DNA of 64,000 bases from an uncultured Acidobacteriota bacterium (GTDB taxonomy: Bacteria > Acidobacteriota > Terriglobia > 20CM-2-55-15), in NCBI GenBank assembly GCA_963836435.1, contig CAWIJI010000006.1, positions 62,956 to 126,955 on the forward strand, given 5' to 3'. Position numbers and translations under genes: made by a program. Positions 5,874-43,062 of the stretch are shown here, one piece after another. Below the pieces are notes generated by a model. That model did no database searches, was not told the origin of the DNA, and saw only the letters and a program-made list of their open reading frames with translations. The stretch's first letter is position 1. Every line of letters begins with the position of its first letter.

Positions 5874-6815
5874 TCAGCGGCGAATTTGAACGCGATAATC
5901 CGGCGGACCGGCTCGCACGCTGATCACCTTGGTCCCGGGATCGCCCGGCGTTGTGGAGTTATAGGTCAGGACATATTGGCCGCGAAGTTCGACGGCGATC
6001 TGCTGCACGAAATCGATCATGCGTTCAATGGTGTAATCGCTCAGCAAATCGGGAATATCGACCACGATCGAATACCCTCCGCTGTCTGCCGCAATCATCC
6101 GAAGAACGGACTCCTCGTAGGTGCTCTTGCCGGGCTCGGCGTCTTCACCCGGAACGCCCCACGCGTCCCATCGCATCCCAAAGGTATATACCGGGGTTTC
6201 CTGTTCGCGCACTATCGCCTGCAAGTCTTCGATCTTGTCGCCGCTCGTGTCGTGGACGTCCGTAATGACGACGAGAGCGCGGTTTCGATTCCTGGCCTTC
6301 CTGCGGATTTCTTTCAGCGCATCGCCGACGGCCTTGTAGAGATGTGTGGCGCCGCCAACGACGTTATTCCTGTTCAGCAGGTCGGTCACTTTCTTCTTGT
6401 CGGACGTGAATCCCTGTTTGACGGTCATCTTATCGTCGAACGTCATGAAGAGGTATTCGTCCCCGGGTTTCGTCAACGTCACGACGACCCGCGCCGCGCC
6501 GTCAGCGGCAAGCAAAGCTGCTGGAACCCTTTCTCTGCCTTGAACGGCGACGGGCAGCCTCATGCTCGTGCTCTTATCGAGAAGAATCCCCAGGCTGATC
6601 GGAATGTCCGGATCCGCGCTGAAGTTCGTCACCTGCTGCGCAACGCCGTTTTCTTCGATCGCGAAATCGGTTTGCGTCAGGTTCGCCACGTACTGTCCTG
6701 CGGGGTTGGTGACGGTGACGATCAGACTTTGCGGGACGCCCTGCGGCGTCGGCGCCGGTCTTGCAGCCTGCGCCAGGGTCGCCGCGAACATGAGGGTAAA
6801 CGCCGTCGATTTCAT
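5874..6815 (-). CDS. secreted VWA (von Willebrand factor A)-related domain protein, Acidobacterial type
   Basis: Signal peptide plus a VWA MIDAS-like ...ISLGILLDKSTSM... segment. The architecture matches Acidobacterial 'VWFA-related' proteins. Confidence 0.65.
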   Translation of the reverse strand: MKSTAFTLMFAATLAQAARPAPTPQGVPQSLIVTVTNPAGQYVANLTQTDFAIEENGVAQQVTNFSADPDIPISLGILLDKSTSMRLPVAVQGRERVPAALLAADGAARVVVTLTKPGDEYLFMTFDDKMTVKQGFTSDKKKVTDLLNRNNVVGGATHLYKAVGDALKEIRRKARNRNRALVVITDVHDTSGDKIEDLQAIVREQETPVYTFGMRWDAWGVPGEDAEPGKSTYEESVLRMIAADSGGYSIVVDIPDLLSDYTIERMIDFVQQIAVELRGQYVLTYNSTTPGDPGTKVISVRAGPPDYRVQIRR

Positions 6816-6893
6816 TGCGAGCGATCATACATGCTCCCGAATGACGACGCCAAGACGTCTCGAAGCAACGATTCGGGATAGAATACCGCCACC

Positions 6894-7943
6894 TTGAAGA
6901 CCACATCCGCACTACGGCTGGCAATCATTGTCCTTATCAGCGTCGACCTCACATGCGTTGTGCTATCTCAGGGACGCGGAGGCGGAGGCGGAGGCGGGGG
7001 CGGCGCGCGGGGGCAAGCGCCGGCGCGCGGCGCGGGGACGGCGCGCGGGGCCGCCCGGGGCGCGGCTGGAAACCGAGGCGGACCGGCTCGCGGAGAAAGG
7101 CGTGGGCCGAGGCCTCAGGAGCTTCGGCCGGACGACGGACTGGTGACGATGTACGTCACGGTGACCGGCAAGGATCATCGCGCAACCCCAGGGCTGGGGC
7201 GGTCGAATTTCCAGGTTCTTGAAGATGGCGTCGAACAGAAAATCGAGGCGTTTTCCGTGGAAGCCGGCACCATAACAGCTGGATTCATTGTCGGCGGCGA
7301 TCCGAGTGAATTTCGCGGCATCGCTCCCGCTTTCCTGAAAGCAACGCCCTGGGAAGACGAGTATTTCGTGCTGGTGGACACTGGGAGGCCGCCAGGGGGA
7401 ACGGTGATTCAGAACTTCACGACGGATGCGCAGAGGATTCCCCGTAATTTTTTTGTTGGGGGCGTCACGCCGGATTCCATCTACGTCGGCATCGACTACA
7501 TGAAGGAGGCGGCAAATCGCCGCAAGGTTTTGCTCCTGTTCGGTGGATCGTTGAATACGGACGGCTCTCCGCGAAACGGTCTGGACCCTAATTACGTTGT
7601 CCGGATGGCCACCAGGGAAGGCGTTCAGGTGTACTCGATTCTCACGAACAACGACGGGGGGACCACGTTCGACGACGGCGGAACGTCCGATATCGCGCCG
7701 CTTACCGGAGGGCGTTCCTACACAACGTACGCTTCTTCCGGCGCACTCGAAACCATCGCGGAAGAAATTGCTGCGGGACTCGGAGTGCAGTATTTCATCG
7801 CCTATCGCACCACGAATCCGGAGAAGGACGGAAAGTGGCGAAGCATCAAGGTTCAGTTAACCGGCGTCCCGGAGGAACTCGGAAAACTTGCTGTGCAAAC
7901 GCGGTCCGGCTACTACGCGGAAAAAGACAAGAAATCCAGATAG
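6894..7943 (+). CDS. secreted VWA-related domain protein with N-terminal Gly/Arg-rich low-complexity segment
   Basis: Signal peptide, then the low-complexity run QGRGGGGGGGGGARGQAPARGAGTARGAARGAAGNRGGPARGERRGP, then a VWA-like body (MYVTVTGKDH...LLLFGGS...). It is divergent from the 5874..6815 paralog. Confidence 0.55.
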   Translation: MKTTSALRLAIIVLISVDLTCVVLSQGRGGGGGGGGGARGQAPARGAGTARGAARGAAGNRGGPARGERRGPRPQELRPDDGLVTMYVTVTGKDHRATPGLGRSNFQVLEDGVEQKIEAFSVEAGTITAGFIVGGDPSEFRGIAPAFLKATPWEDEYFVLVDTGRPPGGTVIQNFTTDAQRIPRNFFVGGVTPDSIYVGIDYMKEAANRRKVLLLFGGSLNTDGSPRNGLDPNYVVRMATREGVQVYSILTNNDGGTTFDDGGTSDIAPLTGGRSYTTYASSGALETIAEEIAAGLGVQYFIAYRTTNPEKDGKWRSIKVQLTGVPEELGKLAVQTRSGYYAEKDKKSR

Positions 7944-8147
7944 GCCGGCCAGCCCGGAAAATAGCGTCCCCCGGCGTCATTTCGGAGACATCCTTCACGG
8001 AACGCCCCCCGGACTGAACATAACAGGCGTTGAACAATACCAACGCCAGAATGAGGGACGCCGCAAAGCAAAGAAGATTCCTATCTACGGTCCACCGAAG
8101 CCGCCTAATCGTGTAGTTGTGTCCACGACGAATTCCTGGATATTACA

Positions 8148-9368
8148 TTAGTTTTTTGGATAAGTCGGCAAAAGCACGCGATTACCAAACACGGCCTTCA
8201 AACCTTCGATTGCGCAATTCTCGTCAGCACCGGCGCCGGGTAGGCCGCCCACACCAATGGCTCCGATCATTTCGCCATCGACGACAATCGGAAGCCCGCC
8301 GGAGTTGGTGAAGAAACCGAATTGGACCAGCTGCCGCGGCAGTCCGCTCGGATCATTGCTCAGTTGGGCGTCGCGAATCGAAGTAGGTTGCCGGGTTTGC
8401 AGCGCGGTCTGGGCTTTGAGCATGCTCGTGTGCATGTTGTTATAGAGCATGCCGTCGCCGCGTTCCTGGTGGACGAGCGTGCCGTGAGTATCAAAGATAT
8501 AAATCGAAACGGCGCCGCCTCTTCCTGCGCCCCAATCGCGACAGGTTCGCGCGATCTTCCTGGCCGCTTCGCCTGAAATCTGATTGCCGTCAAAGATCGC
8601 GGCTGCAGCGCGGCCGGATACGACAAATTCCGGAGGAAGAGAAGATTTTGGCGTCGCATCTTGCGGCAGATTGAAGGTCGGAACCGGGGCGTTTCCGCGG
8701 TTGACTGGCGCGCGAGGCGGCAAATCTTGAATCAACGGCGGCTGAGGGCCTACCACTTCGGTGAGCGCTTTGTGAGCGCAAATCTCGTCGCTCCATCCTC
8801 CCTCCAGACGTGGCGGCGAGCCACCCACGCCGATCGCGCCGATCATCTGATCGTTGACAATAATCGGCAATCCCCCCGCGTTCGGGTACAACCCGATTTG
8901 TATTTGCTGCAGCTCGGTATCCGGATTCTGAACGACGCGATTCATGCGTGCCTTGCTCGGCTGGTGTGTCAGCACCGCCGTGCGCGCCTTCATTTCGGCA
9001 GTCACGATGCTGATGTAACCCTGACCATCCATGCGATGCATGTATACGTGATTGCCCTCGTTATCGAGGATGTAAATGCTGATCCCGACATTCTCTTTTC
9101 GCGCAAAATTCTCGCATGCTTCCACAATGCGCTCGGCAGTCGCAAGATTGATCATCGAGAAATCATGAATGCGCTTCGCTGCTTCGCCGCTGACGACAAA
9201 TGGTGACGTCGGTGCGGTCTGCGCGGAAGCGGTGGCAGTGAAAATCAACGCACCAAGCAAACTGGCAGCCCATCGTGGGAGGACCCGACACGTGTGAAAA
9301 GGCCGCCGAAGGCGGTGTACCGAACTGATGGGGACGGTGGGCCCGACGCCAAAATGGATACGTCTCAT
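8148..9368 (-). CDS. tandem GlcG/HbpS-like (DUF336) heme-binding domain protein, secreted
   Basis: Two DUF336 modules are present, each ending in ...MIGAIGVGG(S/L)P.... The start is placed at MRRIHF rather than the ORF-track Met at 9500. Confidence 0.6.
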   Translation of the reverse strand: MRRIHFGVGPTVPISSVHRLRRPFHTCRVLPRWAASLLGALIFTATASAQTAPTSPFVVSGEAAKRIHDFSMINLATAERIVEACENFARKENVGISIYILDNEGNHVYMHRMDGQGYISIVTAEMKARTAVLTHQPSKARMNRVVQNPDTELQQIQIGLYPNAGGLPIIVNDQMIGAIGVGGSPPRLEGGWSDEICAHKALTEVVGPQPPLIQDLPPRAPVNRGNAPVPTFNLPQDATPKSSLPPEFVVSGRAAAAIFDGNQISGEAARKIARTCRDWGAGRGGAVSIYIFDTHGTLVHQERGDGMLYNNMHTSMLKAQTALQTRQPTSIRDAQLSNDPSGLPRQLVQFGFFTNSGGLPIVVDGEMIGAIGVGGLPGAGADENCAIEGLKAVFGNRVLLPTYPKN

Positions 9369-9448
9369 CGATCCTCCTCTGGGCCGCCAGCAATCAGCAC
9401 CGGCGCAGTCCCGATCTTGGCCGCGCTGGGCATGCCCTCCGTGGCTGC

Positions 9449-11134
9449 TTAACGTTGGCCCGAGGTACCGAACTTCGCGCCCTCCGCCGTCCGCCGCCAC
9501 GTGAAGTATTCGTCGAGAACTTTCATCGACGGCAAGCTGGGCACCGATCCGACGTGCGCGGTCTGTGAGAAATACATGGACCGTGGATCGCGGTCGTCAT
9601 ACGCCGGCCATGCAGGCATACCCGGTCCGTTGGGGTCGCCGTTCTTCGCGAAGTTTGTCCAGTAGACCGCCATCGCCTCGGAGATCGCCTTGTCGGACTC
9701 TGTCGCGCTGGCAGGCAGATGCTGGAAAACATACGCAATCTCGGAACCGTGTGGGGAACCGCGGCCGGCGTTCGGGGAGTCCGCCGGGTAGTCCGGATGC
9801 TGATCGAAGTAGTAGAGGTACGCCTTGCCCTTGCCGTGACTGGCTTGCAGACGCGCCCAGCTCCAGGTCGCCCATCCGAAGGCGGCGTCACGCGTGAGAT
9901 CGCGCGCCGTCTTGGAGACTTTGTCGGGATCCGTGGGATAGGCAGTCAGCAGCCGGTCCGCGTACGGGCCGTAGCGCTGCCGCGTGGCCTGACGATACGC
10001 GTCCGGCGTGGGGGGTACGCCGAAGCTGAGACCCTCGTCGGAGTTGTAACCCACCAGGATGGGCGTGTCGTTGAAGCGCTTGGTCTCATACATCTTGTAC
10101 TGGTCATCGGGGAGCACATGTCCATCGATAACGGGCCAGGTGATACCTTCGCTGCCCGCGGCAGCGGCCACGACTTCCGCGGCGGAGAGCTTGCGCAGAT
10201 CCGCGACGGATGCCGCGCCCGCCTTGGCTGCAAACTCCTGGCCCAGCCGCTCGGCGTCTTTCATCAAGAGCATGTTCTCACCAGGCAACGCGGGCAGGCT
10301 CGGCGGGCCGAACGATCCGCCGCTTTCCGAGATCGCACCGTGAAACAATCCCTTGGCCAGAGGAGACGCCGACAGCATGCTGACCGCGATGCCTCCAGCG
10401 GATTCACCGAAGATGGTCACCTTTCCCGGATCGCCTCCAAAAGCAGCGATGTTTTTCTTCACCCATTGCAGGCCGGCGATCAAGTCCAGCACACCGTAGT
10501 TCCCGGAAACGCGATCCTTCGATTCCGCCGACAATCCAGGGTGGGCCAGGTAGCCCAAGGGGCCCACGCGATAGGCCACGCTCACCACAATGACGCCCTT
10601 GCTGGCCAACCGTTCTCCCGTGGTGAGAGCACCCGCTGTGGAGCCGCCAACAAAGCCTCCTCCATAGATCCACACCATCACCGGCAGCCGCTCGTTGGCC
10701 GCCTTGGCGGGAGTCCAAACGTTGAGGTACAGGCAGTCTTCGCTGCTACCTCCGCCCTGGGGGCCGCCTTGCCTTCCCCTCGCTTGGGCGGGAGCCGGTG
10801 TCGGCGCGGCGCCTCTCCCCCTCCCCCTCCCAGTGGCCTGCGTCCGAATGCCGGAAGGCGATCCGCCCCCGGTGCAGGCGGGCGCAAAGGCGCTCGCCGA
10901 CTTTACGCCGGTCCACTTGGCAGCGGCCTGGGGAGCCCGCCAGCGCAGATCCCCAACCGGGGGAGCAGCGAACGGGATCCCGAGGTAAACGGTCATGCCG
11001 TCGCGCGCCGTTCCTTCCAACTGACCCGTTTCAATCGTGATGGCCGCATTCGCGAGGCTGGCGCACAGTAGGCCGAGCAGCGCGGAAACCACAGCCTGCC
11101 GCCCAGCGCGCTTCCGTGTCATGAAGCGCTTCAT
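9449..11134 (-). CDS. type-B carboxylesterase/lipase family protein, secreted
   Basis: Oxyanion-hole and nucleophile motifs (VWIYGGGFVGGS, FGESAGG) and a signal peptide (MKRFMTRKRAGRQAVVSALLGLLCASLANA). A GR-rich insert GRGRGRGAAPTPAPAQARGRQGGPQGGG sits before the EDCLYLNV motif. Confidence 0.85.
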   Translation of the reverse strand: MKRFMTRKRAGRQAVVSALLGLLCASLANAAITIETGQLEGTARDGMTVYLGIPFAAPPVGDLRWRAPQAAAKWTGVKSASAFAPACTGGGSPSGIRTQATGRGRGRGAAPTPAPAQARGRQGGPQGGGSSEDCLYLNVWTPAKAANERLPVMVWIYGGGFVGGSTAGALTTGERLASKGVIVVSVAYRVGPLGYLAHPGLSAESKDRVSGNYGVLDLIAGLQWVKKNIAAFGGDPGKVTIFGESAGGIAVSMLSASPLAKGLFHGAISESGGSFGPPSLPALPGENMLLMKDAERLGQEFAAKAGAASVADLRKLSAAEVVAAAAGSEGITWPVIDGHVLPDDQYKMYETKRFNDTPILVGYNSDEGLSFGVPPTPDAYRQATRQRYGPYADRLLTAYPTDPDKVSKTARDLTRDAAFGWATWSWARLQASHGKGKAYLYYFDQHPDYPADSPNAGRGSPHGSEIAYVFQHLPASATESDKAISEAMAVYWTNFAKNGDPNGPGMPAWPAYDDRDPRSMYFSQTAHVGSVPSLPSMKVLDEYFTWRRTAEGAKFGTSGQR

Positions 11135-25326: not shown

Positions 25327-25823
25327 GCGAACTCCTCCAACGTGCCTCCATGTTTGACGATCCGATCCACCAGCGAAGGGAATTGATTCGAAGCAATTGC
25401 CTGACGCAGCAGTTGACGATTCTTCTGTGGCGCCTTCACAGCCTTGCTGACCAGCGCCGACTCGGGATCTAGAACTTCGACTGTCAGGTGTGGAAGGTCC
25501 ATCAATAACAAAAACTTGGCGCCATCCGGAATCCAGATGAGATGACTGTCCTCGTCATAGACAAGCCCGTCGTTTCTCAAGAGCACCTTCAATTCTTCTT
25601 TGACCAGGTAATCCATGACGAGCTCTGCATCAACGTCTACGGTTTGCGTCAAGGCGAGAGAAACCGACTCCTGAACCAGCAAACTAATTTGCCCGAGAAG
25701 CCGAATCCTTGACTTCGGCAAAGGAACCAATCCGTCCATCCGCAGTTTGTGGTTCATCGCCTCGATTCGAGCATCCAAGGCTTGAAACAGTGAAAGAAAG
25801 CGGTCCCTGTGCGACTCCATCAT
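25323..25823 (-). CDS. hypothetical protein (possible nucleotidyltransferase-fold), first gene of a two-gene module
   Basis: A 166-aa protein with a ...LTQTVDVDAELVMDYLV... segment that is weakly reminiscent of minimal nucleotidyltransferase motifs. No confident family assignment. Confidence 0.35.
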   Translation of the reverse strand: MMESHRDRFLSLFQALDARIEAMNHKLRMDGLVPLPKSRIRLLGQISLLVQESVSLALTQTVDVDAELVMDYLVKEELKVLLRNDGLVYDEDSHLIWIPDGAKFLLLMDLPHLTVEVLDPESALVSKAVKAPQKNRQLLRQAIASNQFPSLVDRIVKHGGTLEEFA

Positions 25824-25966
25824 TTAAGTCATTGCATTTAAACATATTTAAATCGTACATACAATGACTATTTTGGGAAAATCGCAGTCGGGTGAATTCG
25901 ATGGGGACGCCCCAAAGACCTCGAAGACGCCTGCGATGTCCTGCGGTCCAGGGGGACGATCTCGAA

Positions 25967-26221
25967 ATGAAATATATAAAGAGGTGGTGCCAGGAGCAGG
26001 GCACACTCGAATCGGCAAAGTTGACGACCACCGTCGAACGGGTCACGACCGAGAACCTCAAGGCAGGATTCATTTTGAAAGTGGATGCAGACACCACGAT
26101 CCGCCTGGCGCGATATTCGGGGATTGGGCGTCTCGACAGCGCGCCGCAATTTCGGCGTGTCGTGCCAATTCCGGTTGAACCTCCGGCCGGCATGGAAGGT
26201 CTTTCAAGGAGACAAACATGA
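25967..26221 (+). CDS. hypothetical small protein
   Basis: MKYIKRWCQEQGTLESAKLTTTVERVTTENLKAGFILKVDADTTIRLARYSGIGRLD... The start is chosen at an internal Met. No family assignment. Confidence 0.2.
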   Translation: MKYIKRWCQEQGTLESAKLTTTVERVTTENLKAGFILKVDADTTIRLARYSGIGRLDSAPQFRRVVPIPVEPPAGMEGLSRRQT

Positions 26222-26586
26222 GCGTCCCCTTCGGCAATCTCGCGACCCTGGTCTTCTTTCTGATTCTCGTCCGAGTGTGGTTTCGGTTCGCCCCAAGGTT
26301 CCTGTCACGTTCATCGCCATGTGGATCGTGCTGTACTTCACGGCTCCCCTGTTGCCGAAAGTCCATATTCCGTTCGGGTTGTACGTCTGCTTCCTGGCGC
26401 TCGCTCTGCTGCTGGTGGAGCGCGTGAAATCCACACCCTGGCACAAATGACACTGGCGCTGAATTCGTCCTACGCCGCGGGTCTCCGCATCGACACTCAC
26501 TCAGCCCTTCTCTCCTCAATGAAGACCCGGGGACGCCGCGACAATCCTCGGCCACCTCGCCGAGTACTTCGGGAAAGAGACGCAGG

Positions 26587-26730
26587 ATGACAAACCCCAC
26601 GACGACCGCAGAGCCTGACTTCGAAAAAATCGAAAGAACCTGCCCGAATTGCGGGGCACGTCTCGAAGAGCGCAAGTGCGAGCTCAAGTGCCCCGTCTGC
26701 TCTTATTTCAAGTCCTGCAGCGACTATTGA
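26587..26730 (+). CDS. 47-aa zinc-ribbon protein (CxxC-x12-CxxC)
   Basis: MTNPTTTAEPDFEKIERTCPNCGARLEERKCELKCPVCSYFKSCSDY. Two CxxC pairs are spaced as in a zinc ribbon. It is below the ORF-track length cutoff, so coordinates were derived by hand. Confidence 0.35.
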   Translation: MTNPTTTAEPDFEKIERTCPNCGARLEERKCELKCPVCSYFKSCSDY

Positions 26731-26900
26731 AGGAGGGCTGACGCACCGCTATCGTGCGAGCCCCTGAATTCGAGCACGTCTTCCGGGAACACCATCACAT
26801 GGTGTACCGGACCGCCTAGGGCATCATGGGAACGCCGAAGATGCGGAGGACGTGGTTCAGGCCATCTTTCTCCGGCGTGCCGAATTCCGGCCTGATACTC

Positions 26901-28301
26901 CTACCTGGCGCGCGCGGCGCACGCCTCACCGACCAGCCAGGTTCGCCAACCCTGAACAAGGCCCTGGATTTCGGAGTCGCCGGGGCCCAGAGGGCGATTG
27001 GCACGACGACAGGCGCGATCGCGGAGGGCCGCCGGTTCAATGTGCCACGTGTAGTATCGCGCGAGAGGCTCGTTAGAGTCGGATGCCAGCGTGACGAGGT
27101 CGCCGTCGGGAGTGAACCGGTTGGCAAGCGTTTCTCTCGGGATTGCCCGCTGGGTGACATCTTCCAGCGAGCCGATGACTTCGTGGGTTGCACGACTCTG
27201 GAGCGTGAGCGTGGTTTTCAGTTCGCAGCCGGGCGCGAGAACTGCGTCTTCACACCCGGATGATTGCTCCGACACCGTGGCGGTAATCTGCCCATTCGGG
27301 CTGACAGCTTCCTTTTCGGCAGCTTCCGAGGCGACAACGGCTTCGGCCTTTTCGTCAGACGCGGCCCGCTCAACCAGCGGCGCGCCCTTAACGTCCCACA
27401 CCATGACCTTGCCCTGGGCGTCCGCAGTTGCAAGCATGCTGTTGTCCGCACTGAATTGCAGAAACTGCGGCGCTCCGGCATGGCCCGTGAGGCGCAGAGG
27501 CTTGAGCAGGCCAAGTTGGAAACGGAGGTCCTCTTCCTCGATGAGGTTGTCTCCTTCGCGAATCAGTTGGAAGAGATTCCGGCGCTCCGAGACATTGGTC
27601 AGGAGAACATCCGTTCCATCCTGCGATGCGAGATACGCCGCGTCAAAACTCAGCTTGTGCAGGTAACCGTTGACCGGTGCTGTCAGGACCTGGAGCGGCC
27701 GGCGCTCCGGGACGCCCAGGGACAAGTCCCATTCCGATGTCGTGCTGTCCGCCATGATCGCAATCAGGAACTGCCCGGAGGCGTCGAAAGCGACGTCCTG
27801 GCTTTCCTGGTAGTAGAACTGCCGGGTATTGCAGTCGGCCGTATCGACGACGTAGATCCGGCCGGATCCCGTGGCCAGCGCAAGGCGTCGTCCGTCCGCC
27901 GAGAAGCGTATCGCCAGGATCGGGGAATTCCAGATATCGCCGCAGCGGCGTCCCGCGCCCCTGGCGAACAGCTTGAACTCGCTACTGGGCCGGTCACCGT
28001 CACGTAGTGCGACAACATAGAGCCCTCCATGGCGGCTTACCGCGACACCGGTGATGGTTTGGTTGCCACTATAGAGTTGCTCGGGCTCGGGGGAGGCCTG
28101 GGCGAGATCGAGCGAAACCAGCTTGTGCTCGCGTTCGGTCGAAAGAACGGCTAAAAGGCGTTCCGTTGCGGGATAGAAGTGGAGGTCGGTGACTTGTCCC
28201 GAATGGAGCGCGATCGGGGCGCGGCTCAAACGATTCGCTTCGAGGTCGTAGACCAGGATCGACGGTTCCGCGCATCCTGCAGGCCTGCAGCCCGCGACGG
28301 C
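26901..28301 (-). pseudogene. WD40 beta-propeller portion of an IS-split TIR-TM-WD40 gene
   Basis: WD40 blades are present (e.g. GHAGAPQFLQFSADNSMLATADAQGKVMVWDV). The open frame runs up to the IS1182 left inverted repeat at 28302 with no start codon. It is collinear and apparently in frame with the 29979..30905 fragment on the far side of the IS. Confidence 0.6.
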
Positions 28302-29978
28302 TAGGAGCCTGTAGGGGATAGATTTCTAGATTTCGATCAAAAACGGGACCAGTGTTGACGGGCGGGCAGGTAAAAGACGAAGGCATGACCAAATGCTTTG
28401 TTGATGACGAAATCGATCAGATATTGATGATGCCGCCGTCGCTGCACGATTGGCTCCCGGAAGACCATTTGGCGCGATTCGTGGCGGATTTGGTGCCGAG
28501 CCTAGATCTGTCGGCGTTCTACGCTTCCTATGAAGAGAAAGATGGACGAGGCAATGCTGCCTATCATCCGGTGATGATGGTGCGGTTGCTGGTCTATGGC
28601 TACTGCATCGGAGTCGTGAGTTCGCGGCAGATCGAGAAACGGACATACGAGGATGTGGCGTTCCGGTATTTGAGCGCGGATGAACATCCGCACTACACGA
28701 CGATCAACGAATTTCGGAAACGGCATTTGAAAGCATTGGAGGGATTGTTCCTGCAGGTGCTGGAGCTATGTCAGGCAGCGGGTCTGGTGAAGATGGGGCA
28801 TGTGGCCCTGGACGGGACGAAGAAGCAGGCGAACGCCAGCAAGCACAAGGCGATGAGCTATGGGCGGATGGGAGAAGCGGAAGAAAGGCTCAGAGCGCAG
28901 GTGAAGGAACTGCTCGATCGCGCTGAAGCCGTCGACGCGGCCGAAGATGAAATGGAGCGGCAAGGTTACAGCGACAAGTTGCCTGCGGAATTGGCGCGGC
29001 GGGAGAGCCGGTTGAAAAAAATCGCCGAGGCGAAGGCGGCGCTGGAAGCGGAAGCGCGGCGGAAAGCGGAAGAGAAGAAAGCTCAAGCCGAGGCGCGAAT
29101 TGCCGAGCGGCAGCAGCAGGAGCAGGAGACGGGAAAGAAGATCGGCGGGCGGGCGCCGCAGATTCCCGATCCGGAGCAGGCCAAGCCAGAGGATTGCGCG
29201 CAACGCAATTTCACCGATCCTGACAGCCGGATTATGGTCGACGGAGCGAACAAAGGCAGCTTCGTACAAGCCTACAACGCGCAGATCGCGGTGGATGCCG
29301 AAGCGCAAATCATCGTTGCCGCCGACGTCACGCAGGAAGTCAACGACAAGCAGCAATTGGCGCCGATGTTCGAGCAGGTCGAAAAGAATACAGGAGCCAA
29401 ACCAGTGGCGGGCAGCGCCGATAATGGTTATTGGGCTCCAGAACAAATTGCCGACAAGCACGTCGAAGGCATCGATCTCCACATAGCCACCGGGCGGGAT
29501 AAGCATGGAGCATCGGAGCAAACCGCGCCGTCAGCGGAGTCCGCAAAAGCGGCGACAGCTCTGGAGCAGATGAAGCAGAAACTGCAAACGGAGGCGGGGC
29601 GCGCCATTTACAAAATGCGCAAGGCGATCGTCGAACCAGTGTTTGGCCAGATCAAGGAATGCCGTCATTTTCGACGCTTCAGTCTTCGAGGCTTGGAAAA
29701 CGTCAGAGCGGAGTGGAAACTTGTCTGCGCGACACACAACCTTCTGAAGTTATTTCGATCGGGACGCGGATTTCAGGCTGCGGCGGCATGAAGAGGATGC
29801 AGGAACCTCAGAAAACATGATGAGACCGAACTTCTCTCGCCAGTCTCCCCGTGTTCTCGTGCGTCAAGCCTCAAACGCAATGTCGACGGTTCCCGAACGG
29901 CGACCTGCGGAATTTTTCGACACGGAAAATTTCGAATTTTGGGAACGGCGACCTGCCTTATCCCCTACAGGCTCCTAG
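28302..29978 (+). mobile_element. IS1182-family (IS5-like) insertion sequence with about 20-bp terminal inverted repeats
   Basis: Perfect inverted repeats CTAGGAGCCTGTAGGGGATA at 28302-28321 and its reverse complement at 29959-29978. Between them lies a single transposase gene. Confidence 0.75.
28385..29791 (+). CDS. IS1182-family transposase (DDE)
   Basis: N-terminal MTKCFVDDEIDQILMMPPSLHDWLPEDHLARFV... and the DDE region (...VALDGTKKQANASKHKAMSY...FVQAYNAQIAVDAEAQII...) are typical of IS1182-family transposases. The start is taken at M12 of the ORF-track translation. Confidence 0.8.
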   Translation: MTKCFVDDEIDQILMMPPSLHDWLPEDHLARFVADLVPSLDLSAFYASYEEKDGRGNAAYHPVMMVRLLVYGYCIGVVSSRQIEKRTYEDVAFRYLSADEHPHYTTINEFRKRHLKALEGLFLQVLELCQAAGLVKMGHVALDGTKKQANASKHKAMSYGRMGEAEERLRAQVKELLDRAEAVDAAEDEMERQGYSDKLPAELARRESRLKKIAEAKAALEAEARRKAEEKKAQAEARIAERQQQEQETGKKIGGRAPQIPDPEQAKPEDCAQRNFTDPDSRIMVDGANKGSFVQAYNAQIAVDAEAQIIVAADVTQEVNDKQQLAPMFEQVEKNTGAKPVAGSADNGYWAPEQIADKHVEGIDLHIATGRDKHGASEQTAPSAESAKAATALEQMKQKLQTEAGRAIYKMRKAIVEPVFGQIKECRHFRRFSLRGLENVRAEWKLVCATHNLLKLFRSGRGFQAAAA

Positions 29979-30905
29979 TTTCTTTCCGTCGCCCCTAAGC
30001 GTCAGGGCGCGGACTTCGGACAGGTCATGAAAGCTGGTCGCAAGATGTTCCGTGGCGTTGACTGCGGCCAGCAGACTGCCGTAAGCCGCCGCAGTCGGCG
30101 AGGTGTTATAGGCTGCAACGCTCAACAGCAGCGCCGTGTCGGGCGCACTGCGCAACGCGACCGTGGCTTGTTGGGCCAGGCGCGCCGACAACTCGATGCG
30201 AGTGGCATTGATGCCGGTCCTGATGAGGCTGAAGAGAACCATCGCGGCTACCAGAGCGGCCGTGCCCACCGCAAGCCGTTGCCGGCGGCGTCTTTGTCTA
30301 TCCCGCTGCCAGAGTTCGTCGAATTCGACATCGATAATTCGCGCGATGAGCTTCAGCAGCGCCTTGCGGCGCGCAACGCGCGGCCGGCTGTCCTCGCGCA
30401 GGAGGTCGGCCGCAACGGGCTCGACGCGCTTGTCCGTGATCTGGCCTGCCGCATCGACTTCATAGCGGAGCGCTTTGGGGAAACATTCCTGCGCTTCGTC
30501 GCCCGGATGATCCGAGGCGTGAGGCGCCCCGCCGACGATCAGTGCCAGGATATCCGTTTCCCGGCCGGATGCCTTGAACTTCACGACCTCCTTGTTGACC
30601 CACGAGTCAGGCCGCGCGGAGTTCGGCGAACAGAGGACGATCAGGTTGCGCGCCTGGTCCAGTGCATGGCCCAGCGCTGCTTCCAGATTGGGGTCCGAAC
30701 GTAATTCGTCGCGATCGCGGAATACAGGTTCCAGGCGCTTCGGCACGGGGCCCCGACCGGTTTGCCGGCCCACGAGGTTCGAGGGAATGCGGTAGGTCTC
30801 CAGCGCCCCGATCAACCATTTCGCGTGCTTCTGGTCCCGGCTGCTGTAGCTGATGAACGCCCAGTATTTGCGGGTCATCCTGCTGCGGGAATCTTCCGAA
30901 GACAT
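29979..30905 (-). pseudogene. TIR domain plus transmembrane helix: N-terminal part of the IS-split TIR-TM-WD40 gene
   Basis: Bacterial TIR signature (KYWAFISYSSRDQKHAKWLIGALE...LEPVFRDRDEL...LIVLCSPNSARPDSWVNKEV). One TM helix follows (LAVGTAALVAAMVLFSLI). The reading frame then runs straight into the IS1182 right inverted repeat. Confidence 0.65.
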
Positions 30906-31086: not shown

Positions 31087-33237
31087 GTGTGTGAAATCCA
31101 TCATCCTGCGTTTATCAACGTCCCGCAAATTGGCTATGATGTCCACTCCATGCAACAGGCGCTGCTGAAATCAGCCCGTGAATGCCGGTTTTTTCGCGCC
31201 AGCCTTTCCCGGCTTGCGGAAGAACTGCCGGCTGACGACGAGGCGCTCGACGAACTGATTGCTGCGGCGGTTGCCGAGCGGGACAATGACGCTTTTGTCC
31301 GGATCGTTTTCGCGGCTCTGGGCGCAGGACGGCGCGTCGATGCCCGCCACCTCGAGCAGGGTGCTCTTCTTTTTGATGGTCCCGACCAGTTGTCGGCCGC
31401 CGCTCTGCATGCGTCGGGAGATGTTGCGGGATCCCTGATCGCGGCCGTCCAACGCGAGGGTTTGGGCGATGAGCGGGCCGCGGGAGCCCTGCTCCTGGCG
31501 GGTGTGTGGTGCAAGGACCATGGTGTTGAACCGGTTCCATCCGAATTGATCGCGCAGGCTCGGATCCGGGCGCGCCGATTTGGGCGAAGCCTTTTGGTGG
31601 ATCTTCAGATCGCGCTGCTGTCCGACTTGCTTCACGACGAAGGACTCACCACGCTGCTCCAGTCGCTGGGTGTTGCCCCGCCTCCAGCCGCCCTGGCAAA
31701 GAGCTTCCTCGATGGCTTCGTCGACGCCATGAGGGCATCGCCTCTGGCCGTTGTTCCTGAGCGGCCGGGCCCGATTATCCATTCCGGATTCACTTTGCGG
31801 CGGGCGGTCGCGCGAGTTGGACGGAACGAACCCTGCCCGTGTGGAAGCGGCAAGAAATACAAGAAGTGCTGCATGGAAAGGGACGAGGAACGGCTACAGG
31901 CATCTTCGTCAATCGCGGGTATGACCGTCGGCGAACTTCGCGAGCAACGAGAGCGTTTTCTGACCAGTGACGAACTGCTTCAGATGCGTTCCCATGAACT
32001 GGCCCGTCTCGATCCGGCGAAGGTGGCGGCATCTCTCCGGCCGCTTCTGATCAACCGCCTGTTGCTCTTCGGCGAGCGCGAAGCCGCAGTGGAGTTATTC
32101 GAGAAGACTGGCGTACCGGAGGAACTACGCGGTCATTGGCTGGATTGCATCGACACCGTGGTCGCCGCAGGCCGGAAAGATCTGCTGGCACGCCTCCAGC
32201 CGCTTCGTGACCCCTCCGAACTCCAATCCGAGGACTTCCCCTTGGCTGCGAAACTTCTCACGGCAGATCCGGCCGACGTCCTTCACCTGATCGAAAAGGC
32301 TGCCCGGACGCGGCTGGAGCGTGCGGATCAAAGCGACGCCATCGATCTGGCGTATGCACTCCTGGACAGCCCATGGCGCGCGTTGGGGATCCTGGTGGCG
32401 CGAGGATTGATCGCCCACTGCGGATTGTTTGACGCCGAGACCCTGCTGGACGCGATACTGGAAACACGGGATAAGCTGCATGTGCCTCCGGGCGATCCGA
32501 TTCAGGCGGTATTCGACGCGCGGCTCGAAACCTCGCTCGAAGCCCATCGCGATTCCACTGAGCTTCAGGACGCGCACGAAAAACTCCTTGCCAGCGGCGA
32601 GGAACTGAACGCTGCTCGATCGAAGCTGGCGCGCCTGCAGGCCGAACTGGATAAGGCCGAACGCGAGAAGAAGGATCGAGAGCAGCAGACCGTCCCGCTA
32701 TCCTCGGTCAATTCCGCTCCGGTCCAGCCCCTCATCGACGAATCGGCCCTTCAGGAGTTAAGACGCCGCGTCGCTTTCCTGCGCGACGAACTGCAGGAGA
32801 GGCACAGGGAACGGAATCAACTGAGAGGCGACTTGAATCTGGCCCTTGACCGGCTTGAAGAACTGAGCCGAAAAGAACCGGTTCCCGTGGCCGTGGACGA
32901 AATCGAGGACTCGGAGACGGACTGGAGCGACGAGGCGGAACCATCGGGAACACAACCCGTTCGCATCCCCGAGTTTTCCTCGAAGTTCAGGTCATCGCTC
33001 GAGGAGTTGCCCGCACGGATCGTTCGCCAGGCCATGTTATCGATCGGACGGATGGCGGCCGGGGAAAGCGGCGCGTTCGTGGGAATCAAACGATTGACGA
33101 GAAGTCGTGATATCGTCCGGCAGCGGATAGCGGACCATCGCCTCCTGTTCCGCCTTCACCCCCAAGCGATCGAACTCCTGGCTCTGATCCCCCGTCGCGA
33201 CCTCGAGCGAAGAATCAAAAGCCTGATCTCAAGCTGA
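31087..33237 (+). CDS. large SEC-C-motif, coiled-coil protein with C-terminal RelE/ParE-like toxin fold
   Basis: SEC-C metal-binding motif [17 protein letters not shown] at about residue 250. A long helical and coiled-coil region (...[24 protein letters not shown]...[21 protein letters not shown]). An acidic linker. A C-terminal roughly 90 aa ([81 protein letters not shown]) matching the ParE/RelE pattern. The start may instead be the Met at 31150. Confidence 0.5.
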
Positions 33238-39722: not shown

Positions 39723-39768
39723 GACAAGGTGAGTAAGGCCCGGGGAGTTTCACCCCGAGCCTCTCGCA

Positions 39769-39802
39769 GAACCGTACTTGAACGTCTCCGCTCATACGGC
39801 TC
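39769..39802 (-). ncRNA. group II intron catalytic domain V
   Basis: The minus-strand sequence is GAGCCGTATGAGCGGAGACGTTCAAGTACGGTTC. It matches the group II domain-V consensus GAGCCGUAUG...CGUACGGUUC, including the AGC triad and the bulged stem. Confidence 0.55.
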
Positions 39803-40787
39803 CCGCCATGGAACCTCTCCGCACGCCCATAGTCCAATGGGCAAACACCTGCGGAGCGCGCCGTGAAATTCGGGCGATCCAATGTGCGGCGCGCCGCTTG
39901 TGACGGCGCAGTTTCTTGTATTTCCGTGACGCCCAGCGCGTCAACGCGCGGTCCAGCGTGCGCATGGACGGATACATTGCCGAGCGGTAGTACCGCCCGT
40001 AGTACTGGAGCCAACCTCGAACGATCGGGTTAAACATCCGGGAGAGATCTTCGATGGACTTATCACTGCATCTGGCCAGGTGCCAGCTCCGAATCTCCGA
40101 CCGTATGGCTTTCGCGGCTTTGTTTGAAACCGCCGGCGTGAAATTGATGAAGAACTTTCCCGCTCCAGTATCCAGTTCACTCGCTTGCTCGCGATTCCCA
40201 CGCTTAACGCATCCAGCGCTCGATGGAAATTTCTTCCGGGACGAAACCCATAGGAGAATCCCGGAAACTCGGCCTCGTAGATTTCGTTGAGGATTGACGC
40301 CACTGCCTGTTGAACAAAATTTGTCCGCCAGTGCAGCAATGCCAATCGGACGTTTCCGTCCGTCCGGCTTTGGGATGTAAATTCTCAGTGAGGATTGTGC
40401 CCGCTAGGCTCCGCGATGCACTCGGCCGTGTAGATCCTTCAAGCGATCTTCCACTCCTTTTTCGTACTCCCTCCACGTCATCTCATCGACTCCCGCGGCT
40501 GCTGTCTTCTTCAGATGCAGAAAACTGCTCCGCAGCAAATCGACCGTCAGGTGGTGGAGTAGGCTCGTGAACCGTTCCTGCTTCTTTTCCTTTGCAGTAC
40601 GGCGCACACGTTGAAGCCCCGTTGACACGTCTTTGTCCCCGCTCGGCGTCGTGGACGTGTGTTGCTCCATCATGTTCTCCTTGTTCGGCGGCCTTCCCTC
40701 CGGACTTCTCCTCCCGTGCTTCATGCCACGTTCGTTCGAATCCTTCATCGGTACTACGCCGCTGTCCGACTCCTCGCCTCCGTTCAT
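39792..40787 (-). pseudogene. group II intron-encoded RT/maturase (IEP), nonsense- and frameshift-disrupted
   Basis: RT domain 0/1 (40404..40787: ...FTSLLHHLTVDLLRSSFLHLKKTAAAGVDEMTWREY...) ends at an in-frame TAG. RT domains 1-2 (39941..40345: QQAVASILNEIYEAEFPGFSYGFRPGRNFHRALDAL) lie in another frame. Maturase domain X (39792..40037: ...IVRGWLQYYGRYY...) is in a third frame. RT domains 3-7 are missing. Confidence 0.6.
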
Positions 40788-41173
40788 GTCCGTCGTGCGG
40801 CCTTGGCCTTCACGGACCGGCCTGATCTCTCAGGCGGCGACGAGGCCTCCCGGTTCTCGTGCATGTTGTTTCTTTGCGTGCGCGGGGTCTACGACTACGG
40901 AGGACTCGACCGACGCTCGCTTAGCGCGCCAGCCAATGGTGCCTTCTCCCTCAGCCTAAAAGATCGGCGTCCCCAATTGGGTTTTCGAAGCTCAATACCC
41001 GGCCCGCAAATGCCTCTGTCTACGCTTCAGTTCTGGCCTCGCGGCCAGCGCTGCAAGACTCAAGGTCAGGATGGTTTGCTACTCCTTTCCTGTAGGACTC
41101 TTTCATTCCCTACAAGATGCCGGTTTATCCCGGCGCACAGGCTGTCCCCAGAACTCCAACTTGAACTGGGAAC

Positions 41174-41844: not shown

Positions 41845-43062
41845 TTAAACAGAAGCGACCGGTGTGTCGAAGTAATGGATCGTTCGATGCTCGGTGCACC
41901 AGATCTGGCCATCGGGCGCTGTAACGATCTTTTCGATCCAGTTGCCGTGGTTGTCGTATTTATAGCGGGTCAGAGTTTCCGAATGACGGCCGCGCGCACT
42001 CTCAGGCGCGGTTACAAGAGAGCCGTCTTCGGCCAAAGTGTATTCGCTGTTTAAGGCTTCGGAGATCTCCAGAACGACGTCGCCATGATCGTTGTATGCG
42101 AAGGTGGTGTTGTCGTGATCGTTCGCAACCCGGCGTCCGGACGTTTCGATGCGGCGGTTATGATCGTCGTATCGATGGCGTCGGCCGAAGATAAAAAACT
42201 GGGTCAATGCAGCCACCTGCTCCGCATTACACTGCGCCACGATCTCTGGAGGGAGTCTCTGCGGAATCGAAGTTTCTTCGATGAGATTGCCCCGATCGTC
42301 ATAGAGAAGATCAATCCGCGAGATCCGCTCGCCGCTGCTGTCGTAGGCGAGATGTTCGGCCGGCCGGCCAAGTTCGTCGTAATTGCAAGTGATGCTCACG
42401 ACGCCGGGCATCCCGAAACCCATCTCCGATCCTTCGACTCCGATAAAGACGCCGCAGTTTTCGCGTGCCGGAATTGGTTCGAGGTGAACTACTTTGTGTT
42501 TCTTGCCGTCAGGATTGTAACTGTAGGCCTCCGCGACGCGCGAAAAGCCGTCTTTGTCCGGCACGTTGACACGAACGAGTCTACCCGTAGAGTCGTATTC
42601 AAGTTTTCTCACGACTGTCGACTTTCCGTCCTGTTCGATGCGTTCCGCAATCAAACGATCGCTGTCGTTGTCGTATTCGTAGAAGCAGGTCCATTCAGGG
42701 TGCGGAGGCGGGTCTTTGTGATACCGCCGGTAGAGCAGACCATCCGGACGGAACTCCACCGTCGTCCAATCGATTCGCTCGGTTGTGTCGCACGCTTGCG
42801 GACCGCATCCCCGCGAATACGAGACCCGTTGAAGTTCGCAGAGTTTTACAGCGCCACGTAACGAGAATCGGTGACGATCCGTCATGTTCTCGGAGTCTTG
42901 CATCAATAGGGAGAGGCCGTCAAACGATTCAGTTTGCTGTTTTTCATGCGGGATCGGTCGCGCTGGAAGACGTGATGAAATCCACAAGACCAGGGTGAGC
43001 GTTGGACTCTCCGGGCGCCGGGAAAGAAAGCGGATCTCTCCCGGTTGCGGGAGGTCTGGCAT
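41845..43062 (-). CDS. YD-repeat (RHS-like) protein, no signal peptide
   Basis: Multiple YD-type repeats (YEYDNDSDRLIAE, EYDSTGRLVRV, YSYNPDGKK, YDSSGERISRIDLLYDDRGNLIEE, AYNDHGDVV, YKYDNHGNWIEK). The start is uncertain (internal Mets at about 42885-42900). There is no RHS core or toxin tip. Confidence 0.45.
   Translation of the reverse strand: MPDLPQPGEIRFLSRRPESPTLTLVLWISSRLPARPIPHEKQQTESFDGLSLLMQDSENMTDRHRFSLRGAVKLCELQRVSYSRGCGPQACDTTERIDWTTVEFRPDGLLYRRYHKDPPPHPEWTCFYEYDNDSDRLIAERIEQDGKSTVVRKLEYDSTGRLVRVNVPDKDGFSRVAEAYSYNPDGKKHKVVHLEPIPARENCGVFIGVEGSEMGFGMPGVVSITCNYDELGRPAEHLAYDSSGERISRIDLLYDDRGNLIEETSIPQRLPPEIVAQCNAEQVAALTQFFIFGRRHRYDDHNRRIETSGRRVANDHDNTTFAYNDHGDVVLEISEALNSEYTLAEDGSLVTAPESARGRHSETLTRYKYDNHGNWIEKIVTAPDGQIWCTEHRTIHYFDTPVASV

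Follow-up and report, generated by a model that had tools for sequence, protein, structure and literature searches.

An IS1182-family element splits the gene for a predicted membrane-spanning TIR-propeller receptor in an uncultured Acidobacteriota bacterium

A stretch of 64,000 nucleotides from an uncultured Acidobacteriota bacterium (contig CAWIJI010000006.1; this whole stretch is called the window, and coordinates refer to it) carries, between positions 26901 and 30905, two minus-strand segments of one gene that are separated by an insertion sequence (IS). The gene encodes a protein with a TIR domain, one transmembrane (TM) helix and a WD40-like propeller. The 5′ host segment (29979..30905, minus strand; codons 1-309), as delimited from the open reading frame (ORF), the joined translation and an alignment of the rebuilt product with 14 homologs (A1), encodes the TIR domain, a conserved extension, the TM helix, a helical linker and the first 1.5 strands of propeller blade 1. 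The 3′ host segment (26901..28300, minus strand; from the second base of codon 311 to codon 776 and the stop) encodes the rest of the propeller, to about residue 730 (nucleotide 27042), and C-terminal helices, and contains eight conserved cysteines. As it now stands, the minus-strand ORF 29958..30905 (315 aa) starts with MSSEDSRSRMTRKYWAFISYSS and ends with LRGDGKKLGACRG, i.e. GDGKKLGACRG and a stop, with the tail read from the IS, and on the other side of the IS the minus-strand frame from 28301 downward is open to the stop at 26901. The best explanation of the locus as a whole is that the gene of a TIR-TM-propeller receptor has been split by the IS, and we give this reading a probability of roughly 0.75.

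The IS proper, delimited by perfect terminal inverted repeats (IRs) and a transposase model, is 1,670 bp long (28305..29974, plus strand), with its transposase oriented opposite to the host gene. The initial annotation had reported a 20-bp IR; a perfect 20-bp repeat is indeed present at 28301-28320 and 29959-29978, but the outer 4 bp on each side are the palindrome CTAG and are assigned here to a target-site duplication (TSD), which leaves an IR of 16 bp. Its left copy, GAGCCTGTAGGGGATA (28305..28320, plus strand), has a perfect complement in the right copy (29959..29974, minus strand), and this 16-bp core is found at only those two places in the window (0 expected in shuffles). The transposase gene (28352..29791, plus strand; 479 aa) is apparently intact. 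Its product scored 378.6 bits against the NCBIfam equivalog NF033551, 'IS1182 family transposase' (cutoff 270), and matched Pfam DUF772, DDE_Tnp_1 and DDE_Tnp_1_6; in a look-up, this exact transposase (P0122) was not on record as a called gene. Two copies of the IS from other metagenomes (L087 and L088, 96.6% identical) have CTAG on both sides, and the related IS5 is reported to duplicate CTAG consistently at its target sites (PMC10379815). The element shares with the IS1182 family and its IS5 relatives the transposase model, its DDE domains, short IRs at the termini and flanking CTAGs that resemble the TSD of IS5. The earlier family assignment is thus borne out by a transposase above the equivalog cutoff, perfect 16-bp IRs and CTAG flanks, and the IS is simply another member among IS1182 elements.

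From the host frame and the homolog alignment, we infer that the element (28305-29974) went into a CTAG and duplicated these 4 bp. The predicted left copy of the TSD lies at 28301..28304, as located by frame and repeat analysis, and the right copy at 29975..29978, which on the minus strand supplies Leu310 (CTA) and the first base of Ala311. Excision of 28305-29978, i.e. the element and one CTAG (1,674 bp), gave an open ORF of 776 aa with no stop or frameshift, whereas removal of both CTAGs (28301-29978, 1,678 bp) caused a frameshift with a stop after 333 aa. The excision proposed earlier, 28302-29978 (1,677 bp), was also run: it stays in frame as expected but drops one residue, a conserved Leu, and 28305-29978 is the correct interval. 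Exactly one CTAG was kept because only that fits both the reading frame and the homolog alignment. The two host segments had been described as abutting as GKK-AVAG, but in the rebuilt junction, GDGKK-L-AVAGCRP (nucleotide sequence GGAAAGAAACTAGCCGTCGCGG), Leu310 stands between them, its CTA codon coming from the retained CTAG. Aligned with 14 uninterrupted full-length homologs (37-60% identity), the 776-aa product shows no indel at the junction; the L-A-V-A-x-C motif restored there is conserved, with A311, A313 and C315 invariant in the 15 sequences of A1. The rebuilt gene of 2,331 nt contains a single CTAG, located at the insertion point.

The insertion lies at codon 310, between strands 2 and 3 of propeller blade 1. 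Since the propeller begins upstream of this codon, at about residue 288, the IS cuts blade 1 and not an interdomain linker; of the clean separation of TIR-TM from WD40 described initially, the split itself stands, while its position between the domains does not.

The closest uninterrupted homolog (P0001, from an ENA metagenome) has 773 aa and is 59% identical over 99% coverage, and the 13 others aligned with it likewise answer the call for intact orthologs. Other intact homologs include P0003-P0009 (769-780 aa), L007 from a Thermoanaerobaculia metagenome-assembled genome (MAG), and P0012 (748 aa), named by NCBI 'MAG: TIR domain-containing protein [Nitrospira sp.]'. These proteins share the end-to-end architecture of the window protein, including an Arg-rich stretch, a Cys-rich propeller with the eight conserved post-TM Cys and the C-terminal helices; they differ in being intact, whereas the window copy carries the IS, and the records they come from label them just 'WD40 repeat protein' or 'TIR domain-containing protein'. 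Positions 26580-28330 are matched with 100% identity by a contig of an independent Logan assembly (L001, run ERR11718635), and this contig breaks off 30 bp into the IS. A break at a repeat is the expected behaviour of a k=31 assembly graph. As the contig reproduces the left junction, this junction is genuine, and the IS is seen to behave like a repeat. The metagenome-type source of the assembly, and the break of the independent assembly at the IS, would also suit an artefact, with the TIR-TM and WD40 ORFs being separate genes or the contig being mis-assembled across a repeated IS. This is extremely improbable, as the flanks encode, in frame, the two halves of a single conserved protein, the 4-bp duplication matches, the alignment with 14 homologs shows no indel, and all 14 of the closest full-length relatives are single genes. 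The claim that one gene was split by an IS1182-family element therefore holds: the joined frame is open, the flanks are two halves of one conserved protein, and neither a stop or frameshift at the junction nor homologs with normally separate genes, the two outcomes that were to speak against it, was found. The reconstruction of the split gene, together with its domain architecture, is close to certain.

The host halves carry no further lesions and the IS is intact, and hence the insertion is recent. What the insertion leaves would be a 315-aa TIR-TM stub, its last six residues encoded by the IS, that lacks the sensor, and an orphan propeller ORF with neither a start signal nor a membrane anchor; with sensor and anchor parted in this way, the receptor would be inactivated. 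The insertion event itself is ordinary, as disruption of a gene by an IS is routine, and it matters only as a clean, datable case with a single CTAG target, intact halves and an intact IS.

In Pfam searches on the joined protein, TIR_2 (PF13676) scored 33.8 bits (cutoff 28), ThsB_TIR 23.9 bits (cutoff 21.2) and WD40 (PF00400, residues 581-613) 34.4 bits (cutoff 27). The product had been predicted to be a TIR-TM-WD40 protein of roughly 775 aa, and the hidden Markov model searches suggested for it indeed place both TIR_2 and WD40 above cutoff in a protein of 776 aa. The TIR core spans residues 17-125 (30531..30857, minus strand), as defined by TIR_2, ThsB_TIR, an AlphaFold2 (AF2) model and a profile of the N-terminal module made from 23 diverse members (A2), and family conservation extends over a wider module of TIR and extension, residues 13-205 (30291-30869, minus strand). 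The AF2 model of residues 1-245 reached a pLDDT of 92.1, and its top 40 Foldseek matches in the PDB were all TIR domains (TMt 0.5-0.69), among them those of SARM1/TIR-1, TLR1/2/10, L7, MAL, RPP1, SPARTA TIR-APAZ, AbTir and ThsB. A phmmer search of PDB sequences with the N-terminal 210 aa gave no match, and the family profile was needed: A2 matched plant TIRs (3jrn at 1.7e-5, L6, Roq1), TLR2 and bacterial TIRs.

In the A2 profile the family motif SxWVxxE aligns over SSWCLDEL of the plant TIRs, with E106 on its Glu. The codon of E106, the predicted catalytic Glu of W102-x-x-x-E106, lies at 30588..30590 (minus strand; alignments A1-A4 and the plant TIR alignment). E106 is invariant in A1 and A2, one invariant Glu is found at the corresponding consensus point in A3 (138 sequences) and A4 (58 sequences), and W102 is conserved at 90% or more. 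We take E106 to be the catalytic Glu of the WxxxE motif on helix αC, as in the work on SARM1, plant TIRs and AbTir. From its fold and the conserved Glu, the TIR is predicted to be enzymatic and may cleave nicotinamide adenine dinucleotide (NAD+).

Between the TIR core and the TM helix lies a family-specific extension of about 80 residues with the motifs ECFP and EPxAAD. Its conserved part (residues 136-205; 30291-30500, minus strand) has an invariant E140-C141 in ECFP and P163, A165 and D167 in EPxAAD across 138 diverse members, and has no Pfam or structural assignment. TRADD-N, an identity suggested by published work (PMC8195603), was considered for this extension, and no match supports it, either structurally or among the 25 best of 31 Pfam matches. 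The extra conserved extension would suit a TIR that acts as a non-enzymatic scaffold, recruiting proteins at the membrane as animal adaptor TIRs do, and the structural matches do include the TLR1/2, MAL and MyD88 adaptor TIRs besides enzymes. Such a role is improbable, however, given that across the 138 diverse members the catalytic position always holds Glu and a conserved Trp precedes it by four residues, and given the RyR/TPR-S nucleotide-binding domains encoded by partner genes of relatives (see below).

The single TM helix, LAVGTAALVAAMVLFSLIR (residues 211-229; 30219..30275, minus strand), was located by hydropathy, conservation and an AF2 helix, and is preceded by RDRQRRRRQR. Its 19-residue Kyte-Doolittle (KD) mean in the window protein is 2.08. 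Exactly one strong hydrophobic segment is found, at the same position, in 15 of 15 subfamily members; its sequence identity is 19-56%, against 58-76% for the TIR, so that its position is conserved and its sequence is not. In the same 15 members, six to eight Lys/Arg occur in the 15 residues before the segment and zero to three after it, and the pattern is similar in most of the 120 relatives examined. As the N-terminus is hydrophilic, a signal peptide is not expected, and by the positive-inside rule the Lys/Arg-rich N-terminal flank would place the TIR in the cytoplasm and the propeller outside. Eight conserved Cys follow the helix (315, 320, 430, 467, 660, 669, 741 and 771) and two precede it, and the former would fit disulfides in an oxidising compartment; the pairs 315-320, 430-467, 660-669 and 741-771 are guesses from spacing only. 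There is precedent for such a layout in single-pass Ser/Thr kinases with periplasmic WD40/TPR domains (PMC11032199). A single-pass type II topology with the sensor outside and the TIR inside is therefore what the sequence makes likely.

In the characterised TIR/STAND proteins the WD40/TPR sensors are cytoplasmic (general knowledge; PMC9153377), and the TPR-type and long-WD40 relatives have few Cys after the helix. Both points would fit a hydrophobic segment that does not span the membrane, in a wholly cytoplasmic protein whose WD40 part senses an intracellular ligand as in TIR-STAND-WD40 proteins. Against this stand a segment of at least 19 apolar residues (KD 1.7-2.9) that is conserved in position and always follows an Arg-rich stretch, the eight conserved Cys on its C-terminal side, and the lack of an NTPase domain between TIR and repeats, which make a cytoplasmic location rather remote. 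No NTPase family appeared in NCBIfam or among the 25 best of 31 Pfam matches at E ≤ 1; the interval is occupied by the TM helix and a helical linker.

The full-length AF2 model, computed from a family alignment, has a mean pLDDT of 85.5. It shows a TIR-like alpha/beta fold to about residue 170, a helix at 175-191, a long helix at 195-253 that includes the hydrophobic segment, two short helices, and an all-beta part (288 to about 730) into which a helical segment is inserted at 547-575, followed by the C-terminal helices. Foldseek matched the beta part to seven-bladed WD40 propellers in the PDB (5yzv, TMt 0.77 over ~335 columns), and a propeller model match at residues 297-553 crosses the junction residue 310. 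There are at least seven blades, perhaps eight or nine by strand count, of which only one repeat is canonical in sequence. When homologs were sought with just the propeller half, those recovered all belonged to the same subfamily or were generic WD40 proteins, and this propeller was not found on other effectors. Identity across the subfamily is 26-51% in the propeller and 58-76% in the TIR region; such faster divergence would fit a ligand-facing sensor, and by itself proves nothing.

The initial annotation called a membrane-anchored version unusual, but the opposite was found. Full-length relatives have 744-780 aa, and the N-terminal module of ~230 residues is also found on longer WD40 arrays (~1,000 aa) or TPR arrays (~640-760 aa). 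When its profile was compared with 1.84 billion cluster representatives (clusters at 50% identity), 8,923 matched at E ≤ 1e-30 and 15,510 at E ≤ 1e-10, almost always at residues 2-240 of the protein. All 58 relatives sampled have TIR_2 and ThsB_TIR, 29 have a WD40 propeller and 17 have TPR. Relatives are encoded at 422 places in a collection with a single genome for each species, including places in Holophaga foetida DSM 6591, Ralstonia pickettii RAL3, Duganella qianjiadongensis and Sinimarinibacterium flocculans. With 8,923 clusters and 422 genomic places, the membrane-anchored form is common. A full-text literature search found no description of a TIR-TM-repeat architecture, and the family is very large and uncharacterised.

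At 5 of 22 loci of full-length relatives, the adjacent gene encodes a protein in which RyR, TPR-S with MAP3K_TRAF_bd, or both are joined to a protein kinase, TrkA_N or a guanylate/adenylate cyclase. In tblastn searches with RyR and TPR-S segments, 30 of the 80 loci fetched (38%) had RyR and/or TPR-S no more than 6 kb away, a raw count that comes with no background rate and includes many related Pyrinomonadaceae and Verrucomicrobiota genomes that are not independent. The 30 loci include Acidobacteriota, Verrucomicrobiota, NC10, Thermodesulfobacteriota, Planctomycetota and Alpha-, Beta- and Gammaproteobacteria. In a Pyrinomonadaceae locus (L037:5959-10118, plus strand) the gene of a RyR-TPR-S-cyclase (about 7860-10118) lies directly 3′ of the TIR-TM gene (5959-7848) on the same strand, in an operonic arrangement; the pair with a ~775-aa RyR/TPR-S(+MAP3K_TRAF_bd)-cyclase protein recurs in L015, L016, L018, L024, L025, L031, L042, L047 and L051, and in L053, L067, L071, L077-L080, L084 and L086. 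The partner in Holophaga foetida is a RyR-kinase. RyR-domain proteins bind or degrade the 2'cADPR/3'cADPR (forms of cyclic ADP-ribose, cADPR) made by Thoeris TIRs (PMC13232231), and in type VIII Thoeris effectors cADPR is proposed to be read by a TPR domain (10.64898/2025.12.03.692087). The recurring RyR/TPR-S partner supports the idea that TIRs of the wider family make a nucleotide signal.

The gene neighbourhood of the subfamily was compared as well. The window gene is flanked by a divergent SEC-C protein, CarboxypepD_reg-domain proteins and an aldo-keto reductase. The first of these is a divergently transcribed ORF of 716 aa (31087-33237, plus strand) in which only the SEC-C zinc motif (residues 246-263) was recognised; it was considered as a partner and set aside, being absent from the homolog loci. 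At the four distinct loci of the closest subfamily (L002-L006), no neighbour was common to the window or to one another. At one of them (L002:2113-4670) the gene of P0001 is preceded by a gene for a TIR-GAF-guanylate cyclase protein and an IS240-type transposase; a 1,436-aa TIR-nSTAND1-WD40 protein is encoded within 5.3 kb in L003, and a CHAT protease nearby in L005.

A search of the protein against PADLOC-DB 2.0 gave no significant match to any defence-system model, Thoeris included (best SAVED5--SAVED_TIR, E = 0.0058, 13.8 bits). Of the 87 ORFs flanking 22 full-length relatives, PADLOC matched only two reverse transcriptase (RT) proteins. By Pfam, two members of the same set of 87 ORFs carry RVT_1 and a group II intron maturase domain, and the RT proteins are therefore probably group II intron maturases. 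No conserved defence neighbourhood was thus found at the loci compared, and the gene does not look like a defence-island gene. These results do not support the description of the protein as typical of NAD+-depleting abortive infection; its relatives often stand beside RyR/TPR-S genes.

Under that description, the product would be a single-gene abortive-infection protein whose propeller senses a phage component and whose TIR depletes NAD+, so that the cell is killed or arrested, and the IS would have removed a costly or toxic gene. Some evidence is in keeping with it: the TIR has a Glu at the catalytic position of WxxxE, the subfamily gene of the window is stand-alone with no conserved partner, conflict-type genes lie near some homologs (TIR-nSTAND1-WD40 in L003, CHAT in L005, TIR-GAF-cyclase and an IS in L002), and single-protein TIR systems defend E. 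coli (PMC11350192). However, phage proteins in the cytoplasm would be out of reach of a periplasmic sensor, and a nucleotide-sensor partner at 38% of related loci suggests signalling and not bulk depletion. Taken with the missing PADLOC match for the protein (best E 0.0058) and the yield of only two RT proteins from the 87 ORFs at 22 loci, this makes abortive infection unlikely. The genomic context lends the label no support, and signalling is at least as likely a role.

We tentatively favour a signalling receptor, a mechanism to which we give somewhat less than an even chance. The TIR would lie on the cytoplasmic side, the side of NAD+, and the propeller on the periplasmic side. Receptors might be clustered by an envelope event or a ligand at the periplasmic propeller, and the clustered cytoplasmic TIRs could then self-associate and cleave NAD+, by analogy with other TIR enzymes, which self-association switches on. 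For many relatives, the nucleotide produced would probably be of the cADPR type and be read by the adjacent RyR/TPR-S-cyclase or RyR-kinase protein. With no partner near the genes of the window's own subfamily, the TIR there could signal to a reader encoded elsewhere or simply consume NAD+. A signalling TIR is at least as likely as NAD+ depletion. A broader scheme, in which such proteins are transmembrane TIR receptors of a Toll-like receptor (TLR)-style outside-in pathway, with an extracytoplasmic WD40/TPR sensor leading to a cADPR-type TIR nucleotide and this to RyR/TPR-S proteins that make cyclic nucleotide monophosphates or phosphorylate targets, is speculative and somewhat unlikely.

Several points weigh against the receptor reading as a whole. 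The CTAG is palindromic, and by the IS copies alone a TSD is indistinguishable from a 4-bp extension of the IR, a question that the host frame and the homolog alignment decide in favour of a duplication. A same-species uninterrupted allele was not found: in JGI metagenome contigs, neither the exact 24-nt joined junction nor a degenerate pattern encoding GDGKKLAVAGC had a match, so that the pre-insertion allele is reconstructed, not observed. The predicted topology is based on the positive-inside rule and Cys conservation. No RyR/TPR-S gene is present in the window, at the four distinct subfamily loci (L002-L006) or in L007, and the count of partner loci in the wider family carries the limits given with it.

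Elsewhere in the window, an MFS transporter gene has named relatives in Terriglobia (88%), Thermoanaerobaculia (83%) and Vicinamibacteria (81%), in keeping with an Acidobacteriota origin. A second mobile element lies ~10 kb from the IS: a group II intron RNA (39728-41101, minus strand) with matches to RF02005 (domains 1-4; 40885-41101, 173 bits) and RF00029 (domain V/VI; 39728-39804, 54 bits). As its ends are only ~1.37 kb apart, the intron looks short or ORF-less. It is adjoined by a 405-aa ORF with a YD repeat (41845-43062, minus strand). Downstream of the split gene, ~1.1 kb (25824-26900) contains no recognisable ORF or RNA family, and the GC content dips to 0.48 at 25500-25999, from ~0.60 around it. 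An 897-aa Ser/Thr kinase (57020-59713, minus strand), with a PknB-like domain (306 bits, residues 10-289) and a TolB-like propeller (81 bits, residues 630-786), follows the same logic of a cytoplasmic enzyme plus a propeller sensor as the split TIR gene.

The rebuilt protein was compared with known systems of related design. With the TIR-NB/STAND receptors (plant TNLs, bacterial TIR-STAND-WD40/TPR proteins) it has in common an N-terminal TIR effector and a C-terminal repeat sensor, with activation presumably induced by oligomerisation. In place of the central P-loop NTPase, however, it has a TM helix, which would put sensor and effector on opposite sides of the membrane; without an NTPase, it is not a TIR-STAND/NLR protein. 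Its match to ThsB_TIR, and the adjacent RyR/TPR-S proteins of relatives, which look like readers of a TIR-made nucleotide, recall Thoeris. Here, by contrast, the TIR protein is itself the predicted membrane receptor with a large sensor, and the outputs of the relatives' partners, cyclase or kinase, are not those of described Thoeris effectors. No effector-like or RyR/TPR-S neighbour was found in the window or in L002-L006; lacking an adjacent effector and a significant PADLOC match, it is not a Thoeris system.

The layout of a cytoplasmic enzyme, one TM helix and an extracytoplasmic repeat or propeller sensor is shared with PknD-type kinases and the Ser/Thr kinases of Planctomycetota (PMC11032199), except that the enzyme here is a TIR and not a kinase. 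Animal TLRs likewise have an ectodomain built of repeats, a single TM helix and a TIR in the cytoplasm, and the model of the N-terminal part matches the TIRs of TLR1/2/10. In the window protein the polarity is reversed (N-terminal TIR, type II), a WD40 propeller replaces the solenoid of leucine-rich repeats, and the catalytic Glu is kept. With the order reversed and a propeller as ectodomain, it is not a TLR, and the likeness is an analogy of layout, not orthology; in layout, the protein would work like a TLR or a receptor kinase.

To our knowledge, the TIR proteins examined in bacteria to date act in the cytoplasm, as sensors or as generators of signals. A recent survey states that TLR-like TM and repeat features seem to be absent from the bacterial TIR systems it covered (PMC11350192), and this layout is found here in thousands of protein clusters across many phyla. 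The gene is thus more interesting than its disruption. If the topology and the signalling role are true, the two-gene operon of Pyrinomonadaceae (L037) would be a ready experimental system, and the family would provide a route from an extracellular or periplasmic cue to an NAD+-derived second messenger in bacteria.

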